Positions 3,314 to 58,698 of a DNA stretch of 64,000 nucleotides are shown piece after piece. Source of the DNA: Escherichia coli (lineage in GTDB: Bacteria > Pseudomonadota > Gammaproteobacteria > Enterobacterales > Enterobacteriaceae). Where the stretch lies: NCBI RefSeq assembly GCF_003334405.1, contig NZ_QOWM01000012.1; one strand, 5' to 3'. Position numbers and translations under genes: made by a program. Within the stretch, counting starts at the first letter, position 1. Each line of letters opens with the position of its first letter. The notes beneath the pieces were generated by a model. The model was not told the DNA's origin. It did no database searches and was given only the letters and a program-made list of their open reading frames with translations.

Positions 3314-3712
3314 TCAAAAACGCATGCGAAACGCTTCTGCCATTTTCCCAATTTTATGCATTTGGTTGTTATCTCGAGCCAGTTTATGAGGTTCAGGTTT
3401 CAGAATGGCAATGAGCAACCATGCTTGCTCATCAAACGCCCCCTGACAATATACCAAATGCGCTTCGTCATTCGTTCTGCTGAATTGGCGCAACTGTGGC
3501 GGAAATGGATTATTCTCATTTGCCAGATGAATATGAGCAACTCGCTCAAATTTGATTAATGGCCAGGTAAAGGAGTCGTCGTAGAGTGCATCGCGACCAA
3601 ATATATCTGGCAAAACACCGTCACGCTTATAGGAAATAAAATCCGCCGTTAACGCATCAAGTTCCTCTGCTGTAAGTTGCAGGCGAATAAGTTTTGTTTT
3701 GAATACCCGCAT
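3314..3712 (-). CDS. yafO: ribosome-dependent mRNA interferase toxin YafO
   Basis: 132-aa ORF directly downstream of yafN, conserved operon position. Confidence 0.85.
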   Translation of the reverse strand: MRVFKTKLIRLQLTAEELDALTADFISYKRDGVLPDIFGRDALYDDSFTWPLIKFERVAHIHLANENNPFPPQLRQFSRTNDEAHLVYCQGAFDEQAWLLIAILKPEPHKLARDNNQMHKIGKMAEAFRMRF

Positions 3713-3714
3713 CC

Positions 3715-4008
3715 TTATTCCTTAAAGTCATTGAAATCATCATCCGTCATATCATTAAGATATTGTTCAGCGCGGCGTGTAATTTCCTCTAATCTTGCAG
3801 CACTTGGACGGAAGCGCGCCTTTATGGGCTTTTTCTCCTCTTGTTCAGCAAGCATGTCCATTAACGCTTCGAATGCGCTGGCACTTAAGAGATATCCTGC
3901 GGGGCGATTATTAGAAAGAACCGCAACCGGTTGATCAATAAAGTATTTAGCTGGGTTTTTACGTAACTCAGTGATATTGACCGATTTTTCAGCGAGAATT
4001 CGATGCAT
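3715..4008 (-). CDS. yafN: antitoxin YafN (Phd/YefM-like)
   Basis: 97-aa ORF between dinB and yafO; acidic C-terminus typical of antitoxins. Confidence 0.85.
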   Translation of the reverse strand: MHRILAEKSVNITELRKNPAKYFIDQPVAVLSNNRPAGYLLSASAFEALMDMLAEQEEKKPIKARFRPSAARLEEITRRAEQYLNDMTDDDFNDFKE

Positions 4009-52098: not shown

Positions 52099-53235
52099 CT
52101 ACGAAAGCCCGCTCCCCGCAAGGACTGACGCCAGGTAGTTTCTGTCCATGGCTGCTTTTCGCATCTTACGTCTTAACCCTGCCTTGAATACCTTCTCATT
52201 CGTCAAAATATTAATAGCAATGTGCCGTATCCCTGAAAATAATTCTGCTGCGTTTCCTCTTCTTATTTTGTAGTCGTCTTCATTCATTACCACGTCCAGA
52301 CGCCTGTGCAGCTTATTCTCCACGTGCCAGTGGTTTCGGATTGCTGTGGCGAACTTCTCTGCGGTTAAATCAGCAGAACTGATATAATATCTGACCGTCA
52401 TTTCTGGCTCTTTCTTTTGTTCTGCTATTATTGACCGAAAGGAGACTGCCACGCATAATTTCTTCAGCCCTTTCCATTCAAACGTGAAATCAATAAGTTC
52501 ATCAGGGACATCGCAAACAATATGAAGACGGATTTCTTCTCTGCCGTGACTCTTTTCACTCATTGCGTAACTGTCATGCGCTGGATTATTTAATTCTTTC
52601 AGCGGAAATTTTTCCTCAAAGGCTTTATTTAGCCGCCCCTGGTTTCCTTTTACCGCGAATAAATAATCACCTCCCTGTTTTTGTATCTTCTCTGCAATAT
52701 CTTTCTGGCAACCCATCGCATCAGTTGTGATGATTTTTCCTTTAATATCCAGCATGTTAAGAAGTTCTGGGATAGCTGTAATCTCATTAGATTTCTCATC
52801 CGTCCTGATCTGTCCGATGACCAGACTGTGCATTGTTGAGAACGCACTAATGACATGAATCGCTCCCTTGCGGCGACTCTTGTCATAAGAATGCCGGAGT
52901 GTTTTTCCATCAATTGCGATGACGTCTTTATCATCTGAAGTATGGCAATCTCGCATCCAGTTAATAAAGCACTCGTGAAATTTTGAAGGACTGATACAGG
53001 ATACAACTCTGGCGATGGTATCGTGAACAGGAATACCATTTTCAAAATCACCATATTGTTTTAAAAAATCGAGATGTGTTTCCCCAAAATCCTCTATATC
53101 TTCCCAGCCTTCTGCACCAGAAATAACGGCACAAATAGTCAACAGTAGAATATCCGATAATTTATGTTCCACTTTCCAGGCTTGTCTGTAATCGGGGATA
53201 ATAGAAATATGTTCCATCAATTTTTTAAGTTCCAT
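52099..53235 (-). mobile_element. ISAs1-family (H-repeat) transposase, full-length ORF
   Basis: 378-aa [21 protein letters not shown]...; H-repeat-associated protein family typical next to Rhs elements; corresponds positionally to K-12 pseudogene yafF. Confidence 0.8.
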
Positions 53236-53333
53236 TTTGTTCTCCTTAATTATGTAAGGAGTATTTGATCATGTATAAGCAATAAAAAACAGCTTCAGGT
53301 AATGAGGAATATCTCAATTTTTAAACATAAAAT

Positions 53334-53632
53334 GCGAATTATTTAGTACAAAAAATCAGCGTTACGTGATCTTTCCCTGCCCCTGCGCTCACTACCATGG
53401 CTCTTTACCACAGCAGCCGGGGTTGTTTGGGACCGACTTCCGACAGCAGATCCCGGTGGGCCTGCCACCATCTCTTCACAAGCTTATGCTTATTACATGC
53501 AAAACGTCCCGTTTTGCATCTTTGTGCCTACGGCACACCGGTGATCTTTCCCTGATGAGGGATATATTAACTATTGAACATTAGCGCGAATTATTTAGTG
53601 CAAAAAATCAGCATCACGTGATGCTTTTCCTG
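53334..53632. repeat. pair of ~45-bp direct repeats flanking a ~200-bp GC-rich segment
   Basis: gcgaattatttagtRcaaaaaatcagcRtYacgtgatSttttcctgc at 53334-53379 and 53586-53632; core gtgatctttccctg also at 53541-53554. Confidence 0.4.
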
Positions 53633-53665
53633 CTATTAATAACCTCCTCTATTTAACTATATTTT

Positions 53666-54058
53666 TCATTGATGCAATTCGTAGATTTGAAGAAGTTCAA
53701 CTGCCACATTTTTATTTTTACTATCGCAATTTTTATACCATACCCATGCTTCCGTATTTTTTACTTTTTTTAAATCATCCATAATAAAATCCCCACCAAA
53801 AACAGTAAAATACAATGTTTCCTCATTAAAAATAAAACTCACTGCCCCCCCCTCTTTTATTTTAATTTCCGCTTCATTTGTGTTCAAATCAACTTTTTTA
53901 ATTACTCCATGTAAGTTGGGTTTTGATAGTTTTTCTACGCCACCATCAGGAGCGGGTAATATACATCGTTTAAGAACTTTAGCATTTGCACATCCAATAA
54001 CCCAAATTAGAATGCACACTCCCATGTTAATCGCATTAACGTGTCTTAAAACGTTCAT
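53666..54058 (-). CDS. candidate immunity lipoprotein for the Rhs C-terminal toxin
   Basis: 130-aa AT-rich ORF immediately downstream of rhs tip; N-terminal signal sequence with lipobox-like VIGC; start codon uncertain. Confidence 0.45.
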
Positions 54059-55478
54059 ATCTAATTCTCTCTCCAGGATGCGAATACATCCAACTTGTCA
54101 CTTTCTTACACAACTCATCTACATCTTCATTCTGTGCACGGGTACATCCCATAGTTGGTTTCCAGCCTTGTCGAGGAGCATAAGGATCGCGCAACGATGA
54201 TCCCCCACCATGTAGCCATCTTGCTCTAGTATCTGTAGTATAGATCTTCGTTGTGCCATATGCTGCCGATATTCCTGATTCATTTGTCTCACAACCAACG
54301 ACTTCACCTGTATATGGATCACCAGCACCACGTTGAGAACGACGATCAATTCTATTGCTACTATCAAAAGTCATTGAATCACCTGTTTCAGGATCATAAT
54401 AAATAGTCACTCCTCCAGTCATATCAGTAAGAACAAGAGGAGTTTCAGCACCTGCCCGGTCTGGAGCGGGAGGCCCATATACACTTATAACTCGTTCTAA
54501 CCCCAGTGGATCAGTGTAACGTATTGGTACCAGTGGATACGTGTATAGATTTATTCCCCCCTTCAACCCTATCGGATCCTGGGTGATATACCGCCCCTGC
54601 AACGGATCGTAGTACCGGTGACGGTTGTAATACAGTCCCGACTCCTCATCATACTGCTGCCCCGGCAGACGGAGTGACTGTTGAAGGTGCTGCGCACTGG
54701 TTTCGCCCAGCAGGTTTCCCCATTCGTCATACTCCCCGCACCACGCCGTTTCCCCTTCCGGGCTGATAAGCGCCTGCGGCAGTCCCCGGTGGTCACAGTG
54801 GTAAAGATGAAGTTTCCTCTCCGGGATGTATTCCGCCTCCATCTGCGCGGCCATCTGTTCCGCCGTCAGCCCGCACTGCGCAAGCCATGCCTCACTCTCC
54901 GCACTCACCGCTCCCGCGCGCAGTTCCCGCTCCAGCCTCCCCAGCATCACCGCCAGCTCCGCCGGGAGCGTCACACCCGTGTCCTCCTGCAACACCTCCG
55001 CCAGGCTCCGGTGCCGCGCCTTCGCCTGTTCGCCATTCTCTGTTTCGATTCTGATGAGCGGCGTGAAGCTCCCCGGCTGGTATACCGTCTGGATACGCGT
55101 GGTGCCGGTCTGTACCGTCGTCAGCCTGTCACCGTCCCACCCGTACCATGTCACCTCCGGTTTACGCGACAGCGACATCCACCCCGTCAGGTCACGCTCC
55201 CGCCGCCATACCCGTTTTCCCGTCCGGCGGCCCAGCGGGTCATAGAGGTACCGGCTCTCCACCTGTGGTTCGCCGTGCTGTATCCGCGTGTAGAACACCA
55301 GGCGGTGCTGGCTGTCGTAGTGGTAGTGGTGGGTCCGCTCGTCGTGCATCCGTATCACCCCTTCCGGGATGCGGTCCGTCTTCTCCGCCAGCCTGCCGTA
55401 TTCATCGTGGCGGTAGACATAGTGCGCATCTTCCGCGATGCGGTTACCCGGCGTTTTCCCCGATGCTGGTTGAGTGGC
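54036..55478 (-). CDS. rhs: Rhs protein C-terminal fragment (core repeats + DPLGL boundary + L,D-transpeptidase-like toxin domain)
   Basis: YD/Rhs repeats ([20 protein letters not shown]), conserved ...[26 protein letters not shown]...DPLGL core end, then 153-aa tip with LHGG...[15 protein letters not shown]; frame opens only at 55478, so N-terminal ~1000 aa absent. Confidence 0.7.
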
Positions 55479-57958
55479 TTAAAGAGGGCTGGCTGCTGGC
55501 GTCGGCTGAGATGCAGCACAGCGAACTGCGCGGCGGCGTGTTGCTGCTGGCCCTGCTGCATTCGCCGCTGCGTTATATACCGCCTGCTGCCGCCCGGCTG
55601 TTGACCGGCATTAACCGTGACCGTCTGCAACAGGACTTTGTGCAGTGGACACAGGAGTCGGCGGAATCAGTCGTGCCGGATGCAGACGGTAAAGGCGCAG
55701 GCACAATGACGGACGCCTCTGACACCCTGCTTGCCCGCTATGCCAAAAACATGACCGCAGACGCCCGTAACGGCAGGCTTGACCCGGTACTGTGCCGCGA
55801 CCACGAAATCGACCTGATGATCGACATTCTCTGCCGCCGCCGTAAAAACAACCCGGTGGTGGTGGGCGAAGCGGGCGTGGGCAAAAGCGCACTGATTGAA
55901 GGGCTGGCGCTGCGCATCGTGGCAGGCCAGGTGCCGGACAAGCTGAAAAACACCGATATCATGACCCTTGACTTGGGCGCATTGCAGGCCGGGGCGTCGG
56001 TGAAGGGTGAATTCGAAAAACGTTTCAAAGGGCTGATGGCGGAGGTCATTTCCTCCCCGGTGCCGGTCATTCTGTTTATCGACGAAGCACATACCCTGAT
56101 TGGCGCGGGCAACCAGCAGGGCGGGCTGGATATCTCCAACCTGCTCAAACCGGCGCTGGCGCGCGGCGAGCTGAAAACCATCGCCGCCACCACCTGGAGC
56201 GAGTACAAAAAATACTTCGAAAAAGATGCCGCCCTGTCGCGCCGCTTCCAGTTGGTGAAGGTCAGCGAACCCAACGCTGCCGAAGCCACCATTATTCTGC
56301 GCGGTCTGTCGGCGGTCTATGAACAGTCTCACGGCGTGCTGATTGATGATGACGCCTTGCAGGCCGCTGCGACATTAAGCGAGCGTTATCTCTCCGGGCG
56401 TCAGTTACCGGACAAAGCGATTGATGTGCTGGATACCGCCTGCGCCCGTGTGGCCATCAACCTGTCGTCGCCGCCGAAGCAAATCTCGGCGCTGACCACT
56501 CTGAGCCACCAGCAGGAGGCGGAAATTCGCCAGCTTGAGCGCGAGCTTCGCATCGGACTGCGTACCGACACATCACGGATGACAGAGGTGCTGGTGCAGT
56601 ATGATGAAACGCTGACGGCGCTGGATGAACTGGAAGCGGCCTGGCACCAGCAGCAGACGCTGGTCCGGGAGATTATCGCGCTGCGCCAGCAGTTACTGGG
56701 CGTGGCAGAGGACGATGCGGCGCCGTTGCCGGACGCAGATACCGTGGAGGATACGCAGCCAGAGTCAGAGTCAGAACAGGATAATACCGGTGCCGTACCG
56801 GCTGATGAGGCCGACAGAGAACAACCGGAAGAGACCGCTGAAACAGTTTCCCCGGTACAGCGGCTGGCCCAGCTCACTGCCGAACTGGACGCCCTGCATA
56901 ACGACCGGTTGCTGGTCTCCCCGCACGTCGATAAAAAACAGATTGCGGCGGTGATTGCCGAATGGACCGGCGTGCCGCTCAACCGCCTGTCGCAGAATGA
57001 AATGTCGGTCATCACCGACCTGACGAAATGGCTGGGTGACACCATCAAAGGCCAGGACCTGGCGATTGCCAGCCTGCATAAGCATCTACTGACCGCACGC
57101 GCCGACCTGCGTCGTCCGGGACGCCCGCTCGGTGCGTTCCTGCTGGCTGGCCCCAGCGGTGTGGGTAAAACCGAAACCGTCCTGCAACTGGCAGAGCTGC
57201 TCTACGGCGGTCGCCAGTACCTGACCACCATCAATATGTCCGAATTCCAGGAGAAACACACCGTCTCGCGGCTGATTGGTTCGCCTCCGGGCTACGTTGG
57301 CTACGGTGAAGGCGGCGTACTGACCGAAGCGATTCGTCAGAAACCCTACTCGGTAGTACTGCTCGATGAAGTGGAAAAAGCGCACCCGGATGTGCTCAAC
57401 CTGTTCTACCAGGCGTTCGATAAGGGCGAAATGGCAGACGGTGAAGGCCGCCTGATTGACTGCAAAAATATCGTCTTCTTCCTGACGTCCAACCTCGGCT
57501 ACCAGGTAATAGTCGAGCATGCCGATGACCCGGAAACCATGCAGGAAGTACTGTATCCGGTGCTGGCCGACTTCTTCAAACCTGCCCTGCTGGCGCGTAT
57601 GGAAGTGGTGCCGTATCTGCCGCTGTCGAAAGAGACGCTCGCCACCATTATCGCCGGAAAACTGGCCCGTCTGGATAACGTGCTGCGCAGTCGCTTTGGT
57701 GCAGAAGTGGTCATTGAACCGGAAGTGACGGACGAAATCATGAGCCGCGTCACCCGCGCGGAAAACGGCGCGAGGATGCTGGAATCGGTCATCGATGGCG
57801 ACATGCTACCGCCGCTCTCGCTGCTGCTGTTGCAGAAAATGGCGGCTAACACGGCGATTGCCCGGATTCGGTTGTCGGCAGTGGACGGCGCATTTACGGC
57901 AGACGTGGAAGATGCTCAGAACGACGAGTCCGTCACAAAGGATGAAACGGTTTTATGA
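55463..57958 (+). CDS. clpV: ClpV-like AAA+ ATPase (TssH), 5-prime end abutting rhs fragment; N-domain short or truncated
   Basis: Two AAA+ modules (GEAGVGKSA; GPSGVGKTE); N-terminal segment [10 protein letters not shown]...; only ~85 aa precede the linker ([19 protein letters not shown]) versus ~150 expected; no RBS or intergenic space. Confidence 0.7.
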
Positions 57959-58698
57959 GCAGGTTGCGCGTTTTCCGGCAGACAGGATGGTTTATCGCGG
58001 GCCTGATGACGGGCTTACCCGCCACTGCCGCGCCCGCAGAAGCATCGTCAATGGCCGGTGTGGCGGTCGCCGTCGCCACCACGACCCCGCCGGATGCGAC
58101 AGCCACGTTACAGGCCATACAGTCCTGTCGGCGGGAGTCCGCGGCGCTGGAGCGGCTTGACTGCTATGACCGCCTGCTGGCACCGCTGTCCCCGTCAGGG
58201 TTTGACGGGGCGCTGGTCAAAGCCGGTTTTGTGGGCGAGGCCTGGACCCGCGCCACAGAGCAGGAAAAACGCCGCGAGGGCAACACCACAGAACTGCTGG
58301 TGACGCAGGTGCCGGGGGAGCGCCCGACGGTGGTGATAACCACCCCGGCTATCGGTCATGTTCCGCCACGCCCGGTGCTGATGTTCAGTTGCGTGGACAA
58401 TATCACCCGGATGCAGGTGGCGCTGATGCACCCTCTGGATGTCCATGATATCGCCGTCACTCTGAATGCCGACAACCGGGCATTGCGCAGCCACTGGTTT
58501 GTGCGCGAGAACGGCACCCTGCTGGAGTCCAGCCGGGGGTTATCCGGGATTGATGAAATTAAGCAACTGTTCGGCGCAAAAACGCTGACGGTGGATACCA
58601 GGGACGACGTATCGGGCCTTATGTGGAACAGACCTATCTGCAACTGCTGGAGCAACGTTACCTGCCCTCGCTGTTTAACGGGCTGGTCAAAGCGATGA
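57955..58698 (+). CDS. secreted protein, possibly T6SS-associated (VasI-like); 3-prime end runs into tssM fragment
   Basis: Signal peptide [30 protein letters not shown]; ATGA overlap with clpV stop; assignment by position and composition only. Confidence 0.35.
   Translation: MSRLRVFRQTGWFIAGLMTGLPATAAPAEASSMAGVAVAVATTTPPDATATLQAIQSCRRESAALERLDCYDRLLAPLSPSGFDGALVKAGFVGEAWTRATEQEKRREGNTTELLVTQVPGERPTVVITTPAIGHVPPRPVLMFSCVDNITRMQVALMHPLDVHDIAVTLNADNRALRSHWFVRENGTLLESSRGLSGIDEIKQLFGAKTLTVDTRDDVSGLMWNRPICNCWSNVTCPRCLTGWSKR

Follow-up and report, generated by a model that had tools for sequence, protein, structure and literature searches.

A small protein with a predicted export signal, encoded at the end of a truncated rhs gene in Escherichia coli, is a probable immunity partner of a YkuD-fold Rhs toxin tip

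Introduction

Immunity proteins that protect the periplasm against cell-wall toxins of type VI secretion systems (T6SS) are small, carry a signal peptide and bind the effector that targets peptidoglycan. Rap1a is cited as an instance of such a periplasmic immunity protein in the preprint on the toxin Tlde1, where orphan immunity genes appear beside it (10.1101/2020.02.18.954545). In the SPI-6 T6SS of Salmonella Typhimurium, the delivered, L,D-transpeptidase-related toxin Tlde1a acts on peptidoglycan in the periplasm of the target cell, and it is counteracted by Tldi1a, a small protein encoded directly 3' of Tlde1a with a Sec signal of its own (PMC9638812; 10.1101/2020.02.18.954545). Rhs-fused relatives of Tlde1 were reported from Shigella sonnei, with their immunity proteins left undescribed (10.1101/2020.02.18.954545).

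A Tox-LD-peptidase domain has been described at the C-terminus of RHS-repeat proteins linked to the T6SS, with Imm16 or Imm57 as the downstream immunity protein (Zhang et al. 2012, PMC3482391). The classical Rhs-CT/CTI pairs of E. coli were presented by Ma et al. 2017, as covered in a review (PMC6730261). In a review of E. coli T6SS effectors, the Rhs tips are nucleases, an RNase and a metallopeptidase, and the tip described below is absent from it.

The present work concerns an open reading frame (ORF) of 130 codons at the end of an rhs gene. The window, that is, the whole stretch of DNA analysed, comprises 64,000 nucleotides of an E. coli contig (NZ_QOWM01000012.1, assembly GCF_003334405.1). 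In the original prediction, the ORF had been proposed to encode a lipoprotein conferring immunity to a periplasm-acting Rhs toxin. No paper on the ORF protein was found in a literature search.

The locus resembles Tlde1/Tldi1 in that a putative cell-wall toxin is followed by a downstream immunity protein predicted to be exported, but the toxin is not a DUF2778 protein and the ORF protein is not Tldi1. It differs from the Tox-LD-peptidase pairs in that the ORF protein is neither Imm16 nor Imm57, since neither Pfam family matched any of 34 family members, although Imm57 genes are neighbours of one close relative, P0058. Imm57 is described as mostly α-helical, whereas the ORF protein is predicted to be a β-barrel. 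With the Rap1a class the ORF protein shares small size, a signal peptide and a predicted periplasmic location.

The features held in common with classical Rhs elements are a GC-rich core, the DPxGL motif, an AT-rich tip, a small AT-rich immunity ORF overlapping or abutting the stop codon, and an H-repeat (ISAs1). The tips characterized by Ma et al. 2017, according to the review (PMC6730261), are nucleases, an RNase and a metallopeptidase, cytoplasmic and with cytoplasmic immunity proteins, whereas a cell-wall tip with an exported immunity protein is predicted here.

Results

The ORF and its expression signals

The ORF is located on the minus strand, on which the original prediction had been silent. 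The following features were assigned to it and to its immediate surroundings:

53666–54058, minus strand: candidate immunity ORF, 130 aa, RefSeq WP_001101839.1 ("hypothetical protein"); predicted OB-like β-barrel with conserved Cys32 and Cys111
54067–54074, minus strand: Shine-Dalgarno-like stretch GGAGAGAG, 8 nt 5' of the ORF start codon (M1), within the end of the rhs frame
53600–53625, minus strand: hairpin resembling a terminator (AGCATCACGTGATGCT), with a T-run after it, about 40 nt 3' of the ORF stop codon

The start codon of the ORF (ATG, 54056–54058) is situated 20 nt ahead of the rhs stop codon (TAA, 54036–54038), and the two frames overlap by 23 nt, so the coordinates and the overlap with the rhs stop given in the original prediction were exact. 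The rhs gene itself proved not to be intact, only its last 1.4 kb or so being present in the window. The GC content of the ORF was 32.8% (GC3 24.6%), compared with 53.5% for the whole window, 44.0% for the rhs toxin tip (54039–54497) and 61.9% for the rhs core part (54498–55358), which agrees with the earlier observation that the ORF falls far below the rhs core.

No Shine-Dalgarno-like stretch comparable to GGAGAGAG was observed before the in-frame alternative start M12. The sole promoter-like site found, a weak one, lies within the toxin-coding region 5' of the ORF, and the upstream promoter region of rhs is absent from the window. Between the rhs stop codon and the ISAs1 element, no candidate immunity ORF besides the 130-aa ORF was present.

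The Rhs tip

Upstream of the ORF, the remaining part of rhs was divided into two segments:

54039–54497, minus strand: Rhs C-terminal toxin domain, 153 aa after DPLGL, predicted YkuD / L,D-transpeptidase fold
54498–55452, minus strand: rhs core remnant with the last YD repeats, the RHS-associated core domain and the DPLGL cleavage motif; homology to full-length rhs ends at 55452

In a 440-aa ORF (54036–55358), the final 290 positions of the RHS core model are recognized together with the RHS-associated core domain, after which the frame continues into the 153-residue tip. Scanned alone, the tip matched the Pfam family YkuD (E = 3.4e-5), as did 12 of 16 relatives of 44–54% identity that were scanned singly. 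The relatives have the motif RW(I/V)HGGGSGL in common; His96 is invariant and Cys118 nearly so. The codons of the catalytic motif are located at 54210–54212 (His) and 54144–54146 (Cys, in TMGCTR). The arrangement His...(S/T)xGC is the L,D-transpeptidase pattern, as described for Tlde1 (PMC9638812). The predicted fold was matched by Foldseek to Bd1075 (E = 3.8e-4).

Assignment of the toxin to the Tlde1 family (DUF2778) was rejected, as there was neither a DUF2778 match nor a sequence match to Tlde1a, and Tlde1 was not its closest structure. When PDB sequences were searched with the ORF, with the tip and with its profile, nothing matched the toxin or immunity parts; matches were confined to the DPxGL region of Rhs. 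The profile match, the His...(S/T)xGC(h)R motif and the modelled fold together indicate that the tip is a YkuD-fold enzyme, related to Tlde1 but outside the Tlde1 family. A YkuD fold with this His and Cys motif implies a peptidoglycan target in the periplasm, and peptidoglycan would be the expected substrate of the toxin.

Some relatives of the toxin (P0052, encoded at 4001–4591 of L002, and P0040, P0046 and P0049) are stand-alone proteins of about 190 aa with a Sec-type signal peptide. In these proteins, the signal peptide is followed by a vestigial Rhs sequence (DPIGL...DPxGLD), and a transglutaminase-like gene adjoins. They appear to be Rhs tips converted to Sec-exported proteins.

The protein family of the ORF

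The ORF protein was compared with 1.84 billion cluster representatives in an exhaustive phmmer search (E ≤ 1e-3). In total, 64 representatives were matched, about 40 of them full-length (117–150 aa), with 27–50% identity to the ORF. A word-indexed homologue search returned only near-identical E. coli copies together with broken or fragment versions.

In an alignment of 34 family sequences, P35, D38, G51, G88 and G89 were invariant, and C32, L34, W107 and C111 were nearly invariant. The motifs of the family are CxLPxPDGG, FGGD and VW(Y/F)xxC. One of the aligned members lacks both cysteines and one lacks the second only; a disulfide between Cys32 and Cys111 would probably be formed in the ORF protein. 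The AlphaFold2 (AF2) model of the protein, with a pLDDT of 90.4, is a β-barrel in which residues 4–23 form a separate helix.

In a Pfam scan of all 34 members, no match to Tldi1 (DUF2195), Imm57 or Imm16 (DUF2750) was obtained at E ≤ 0.1, and NCBIfam gave no match for the ORF protein. Membership in DUF4367 (PF14285) was considered and discarded, as this family matched the window protein alone (1 of 34), with E = 4.6e-4 and over half of the model. Judged by sequence, the ORF is a real gene in a conserved family without a Pfam or NCBIfam entry.

One family member, P0070 (175 aa), contains two tandem copies of the immunity domain, which points either to a duplication of immunity genes or to gene calls that were fused.

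Pairing with the toxin in other genomes

One genome per species was scanned for the two most conserved peptides of the toxin, which yielded 11 loci. In seven of them, a member of the ORF family was located directly 3' of the toxin, namely in an E. coli-like contig, three Acidovorax, Curvibacter, Variovorax and a Burkholderiales isolate. At these paired loci the HMM of the ORF family gave E values from 1e-6, for a gene cut by the contig end, to 1e-39. On a metagenome contig (L015), a family member of 34% identity begins 2 nt past the toxin stop codon. Over eight loci, the distance from the toxin stop codon to the immunity gene ranged from −23 to +25 nt, with both genes on the same strand.

In the other 4 of the 11 loci, the gene downstream of the toxin was outside the ORF family. 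The next gene after other toxin relatives encodes a protein of about 200 aa with a signal peptide and a conserved CxxxxC (L002 4597–5190, L006 3645–4253, L008 1299–1904 and L024 ~3327–3905). A remote relationship of this protein to the ORF family was rejected, the hhalign probability being 3.3%. This protein probably represents a second family of immunity proteins against the same toxin, so the toxin would have at least two alternative, unrelated and exported partners. The signal peptide of the unrelated second partner fits a periplasmic site of action and swappable immunity partners.

The gene for the ORF relative P0058 (50% identity) lies among small genes that form an array, to which Imm57 (twice), a Rap1a-like gene and MafI2 belong. 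By its gene content, this array is a signature of stockpiled orphan immunity genes. A scan of the locus with the toxin profile gave no match. The array (2376–8213 of L010, a Logan contig of SRR31736489) consists of about ten small genes on the same strand, DUF7668 among them; it is situated between msrB and pncA/ansA-like genes, apparently in an enterobacterial genome.

Several relatives of the ORF, some of them distant and some on short contigs, were found without an adjacent toxin (L013, L031). Their occurrence fits orphan immunity genes, yet it weakens a strict linkage of the two families.

A contig of 2.6 kb (L016, JAIJJM010000460.1) assigned to a "Collinsella sp." MAG encodes a protein 100% identical to the E. 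coli rhs tip, followed by a member of the immunity family. A binning error that placed E. coli DNA in an actinobacterial MAG is probable.

Predicted complex and proposed mechanism

The toxin tip was joined to the mature immunity protein by a Gly/Ser linker of 28 residues, and the fusion of 288 residues was modelled with AlphaFold2. The alignment was shallow in its paired part, consisting of 7 paired rows, 12 toxin-only rows and 19 immunity-only rows. The model reached a pLDDT of 85.4 and a pTM of 0.77. Values below 50 were confined to the linker and the first 15 residues, and each of the two domains exceeded 90. With about 250 of the 288 residues ordered, we reason that a pTM of 0.77 is near its ceiling; by our own estimate, a value of about 0.45 would be expected if the larger domain alone were confidently placed. 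We take the model, with this shallow pairing, as support for direct binding between the toxin and the immunity protein.

The ORF is thus found downstream of the toxin on the same strand, its family is paired with the toxin in distant taxa, its product is predicted to reach the compartment of the toxin, and relatives occur as orphans and in an array. The probability that the ORF protein is the cognate immunity protein of the adjacent Rhs tip toxin is, in our assessment, roughly 0.78. The central claim of the original prediction, an immunity partner of a periplasm-acting Rhs toxin, is strengthened by the YkuD-fold tip, the exported family, the conserved toxin-then-immunity order, the P0058 array and the AF2 fusion.

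In the mechanism that we propose, the toxin would be a cysteine enzyme with the L,D-transpeptidase (YkuD) fold. It would be delivered by the T6SS into the periplasm of a neighbouring cell, where stem peptides of peptidoglycan would be cut or re-wired. An N-terminal Sec signal would take the immunity protein to the periplasm, where the protein would be either tethered to the membrane through lipidated Cys23 or soluble after cleavage at ANA↓K. As a small OB-like β-barrel, probably braced by the Cys32–Cys111 disulfide, it would bind the incoming toxin one-to-one and block it.

Export signal: lipid anchor or soluble protein

The N-terminus of the ORF protein was assigned as follows:

53990–54058, minus strand: export signal, codons 1–23, comprising an n-region that contains Arg5, a hydrophobic core of 11 residues and the sequence VIGC (residues 20–23)

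The hydrophobic signal sequence ending in VIGC, as originally described, was confirmed, with a lipobox at residues 20–23 and Cys23 as its cysteine. A hydrophobic N-terminal segment before the conserved Cys was present in 33 of 34 family members (best 10-residue Kyte–Doolittle mean ≥ 2.16, median 2.84), the exception being a truncated gene call. Export of the ORF protein to the periplasm is well supported by this conservation.

The ORF passes our own coding of the PROSITE PS51257 lipobox rule (Cys at positions 15–35, K or R among the first 7 residues), as well as the stricter pattern [LVI][ASTVI][GAS]C, with Arg5 upstream. The PS51257 rule is also passed by 6 of 267 ORFs of at least 60 aa in the window, or about 2%. 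In the case of a true lipoprotein with immunity function, Cys23 would be lipidated by Lgt, LspA would cleave before Cys23, and the protein would be placed at the inner face of the outer membrane. Under the Lol sorting rule, Ala at position +2 directs a lipidated protein to the outer membrane, which would apply to the ORF protein if it is lipidated. A tether of 8 residues ahead of the first conserved residue, Cys32, is compatible with such an anchor, as is the rate of only about 2% at which window ORFs pass the rule by chance.

Against a lipid anchor, a lipobox was found in only 2 of 41 family representatives, and the lipobox was therefore not conserved among the homologues. In addition, codons 24–26 of the E. 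coli ORF itself encode ANA, an alternative signal peptidase I site (ANA↓K) 3 residues past Cys23. The closest relative, P0058, has no lipobox and yet has the same AxA↓K site, its sequence ...MFIC-SASA↓K aligning with ...VIGC-ANA↓K of the E. coli protein. Given the rarity of the lipobox and the site in P0058, cleavage by signal peptidase I after Ala26, with a soluble product, is an equally good reading. Apparent variants of the ORF with intermediate identity (P0006, P0011, P0014, P0016 and others) were frameshifted or junction artefacts and are of no use for judging lipobox conservation at short distance.

Lipid anchoring of the ORF protein consequently stands at about even odds, and the complete lipoprotein route combined with immunity function falls slightly short of that. 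Of the earlier designation as a lipoprotein, the lipobox in the E. coli ORF is retained, while the anchoring itself is weakened by the count of only 2 relatives in 41 and the competing ANA↓K site.

The locus in this strain and across E. coli

Two further features delimit the module:

52099–53235, minus strand: transposase of the ISAs1 family (H-repeat), located 3' of the module, the layout known from classical Rhs elements
55445–55452, no strand: junction of a deletion of about 16.3 kb, at which the rhs and tssH homology blocks overlap by 8 bp (relative to E. coli UMNK88)

The window is chromosomal, with the gene order yafJ, gmhA, fadE, ivy, yafV, ISAs1-family transposase, ORF, rhs and T6SS genes. 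The corresponding region of E. coli UMNK88 comprises yafV, ISAs1, a gene for a hypothetical protein of 130 aa, an rhs gene of full length but frameshifted, vgrG, hcp, tssB, tssC ... tssH, tssM (frameshifted as well) and tRNA-Asp. Homology to UMNK88 rhs ends at 55452, and homology to tssH runs from 55445, starting about 252 nt into the gene. The deletion of 16.3 kb removes the 5' 2.8 kb of rhs, vgrG, hcp, tssB, tssC, tssE, tssF, tssG, tagH, tssJ, tssK, dotU and the first ~252 nt of tssH. At the junction (context 54036–57958), the last 1.4 kb of rhs on the minus strand is fused to a 5'-truncated tssH/clpV on the plus strand. A second deletion relative to UMNK88, of about 3.1 kb at 58596–58599, joins vasI to tssM with loss of tssA. 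The T6SS island is doubly disabled in this strain.

Deprived of its T6SS and of most of rhs, this strain can neither make the toxin in full nor fire it, and the ORF is effectively an orphan immunity gene. With the weapon gone, it can only protect against other E. coli that still fire the toxin.

The same rhs–tssH junction was common to 31 of 5426 complete E. coli genomes, and the immunity gene was intact in all 31. Among complete E. coli genomes, the immunity gene was present in 1003–1021 and the toxin tip in 923–943, corresponding to about 19% and 17%, respectively, with about 80 more genomes carrying the immunity gene. The ORF was 99–100% identical over about 1000 E. coli genomes. In the B lineage (L028 3501–4571, E. 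coli NEBExpress_Iq), the immunity gene is interrupted by IS1 within its first ~12 codons, the T6SS island and rhs are wholly absent, and RefSeq calls a 123-aa hypothetical protein.

These data bear on the reading that the ORF is a leftover without a current role in this strain, the T6SS, most of rhs and the operon promoter having been lost and the ORF being intact only because the deletion is recent. The two deletions of 16.3 kb and 3.1 kb did wreck the T6SS, and IS1 has already taken the first 12 ORF codons in the B lineage. The near-identity of the ORF across about 1000 genomes also means that its intactness says little about selection. On the other hand, the ORF is intact in the 31 genomes with the same deletion, the immunity gene is retained in about 80 more complete genomes than the toxin tip, and the retention of orphan immunity genes is a known pattern (PMC6730261). 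As the toxin persists in about 17% of E. coli genomes, protection against it would be useful. On balance, a leftover appears unlikely, and a retained immunity gene remains our preferred reading.

Discussion

The predicted fold raises a different question, namely whether the ORF encodes an unrelated exported OB-fold protein travelling with the cassette, for instance one that binds peptidoglycan or metal in the periplasm, or else a helper of toxin activity. The fold matches of the ORF protein were OB-fold proteins of a generic kind, among them CusF and SilF, which are metal chaperones, and the B subunit of Shiga toxin. No curated immunity family was matched, and both results would be compatible with such a passenger. 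However, the position right after the toxin stop codon is kept across Gamma- and Betaproteobacteria, the close relative P0058 is located inside an array of known immunity genes, and no rival immunity ORF is found between the rhs stop codon and ISAs1. The mutual arrangement of the two domains in the fusion model, predicted with confidence, also speaks for a partner of the toxin. An unrelated passenger or helper is consequently very improbable. A chance open frame in AT-rich DNA, for which the small size and the bare label "hypothetical protein" might speak, has practically no probability left, as the existence of a family with homologues of 27–50% identity and conserved motifs already refutes it, a run of 130 open codons has a chance of about 4e-6 per start at the composition of this strand, and the AF2 model reached a pLDDT of 90.4.

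With the ORF taken as the cognate immunity gene, a broader interpretation can be offered, for which we see a little better than an even chance. The ORF would found an unannotated, exported OB-fold family with two conserved cysteines that inhibits YkuD-fold enzymes specifically. Two or more unrelated kinds of immunity to this Rhs toxin would exist, the ORF, present in about 19% of complete E. coli genomes, being one of them, and it would serve as a stand-alone shield where the weapon has been lost. If this is true, the ORF protein would be a natural inhibitor scaffold for enzymes with the L,D-transpeptidase fold, and the ORF would mark the E. coli lineages with immunity to the toxin.

Which strains can coexist in the gut is decided by cassettes of Rhs toxins and their immunity genes. 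The pair described here occurs in about one of five to six complete E. coli genomes, where it is labelled only "RHS core protein" and "hypothetical protein". What is gained is a testable effector–immunity pair whose tip is distinct from Tlde1, an immunity family missing from Pfam and NCBIfam, and an example of a strain in which the secretion system was lost and the antidote kept. The toxin is of a known kind, for which the ORF represents an immunity family that lacks annotation, and the understanding of such systems is unchanged by it; the pair is useful, testable and common in E. coli, and it is no surprise to a specialist.

A minor observation was made in the segment of about 250 bp (53334–53622) between the immunity gene and the ISAs1 transposase. 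Rfam RF01999 (group II intron D1-D4-2) is matched there over its full length at 53349–53469 on the minus strand, with 81.8 bits and E = 9e-17, and the segment is bracketed by direct repeats of 37 nt at 53334–53370 and 53586–53622. Some part of the region 53300–54600 is multi-copy in nearly all E. coli genomes.
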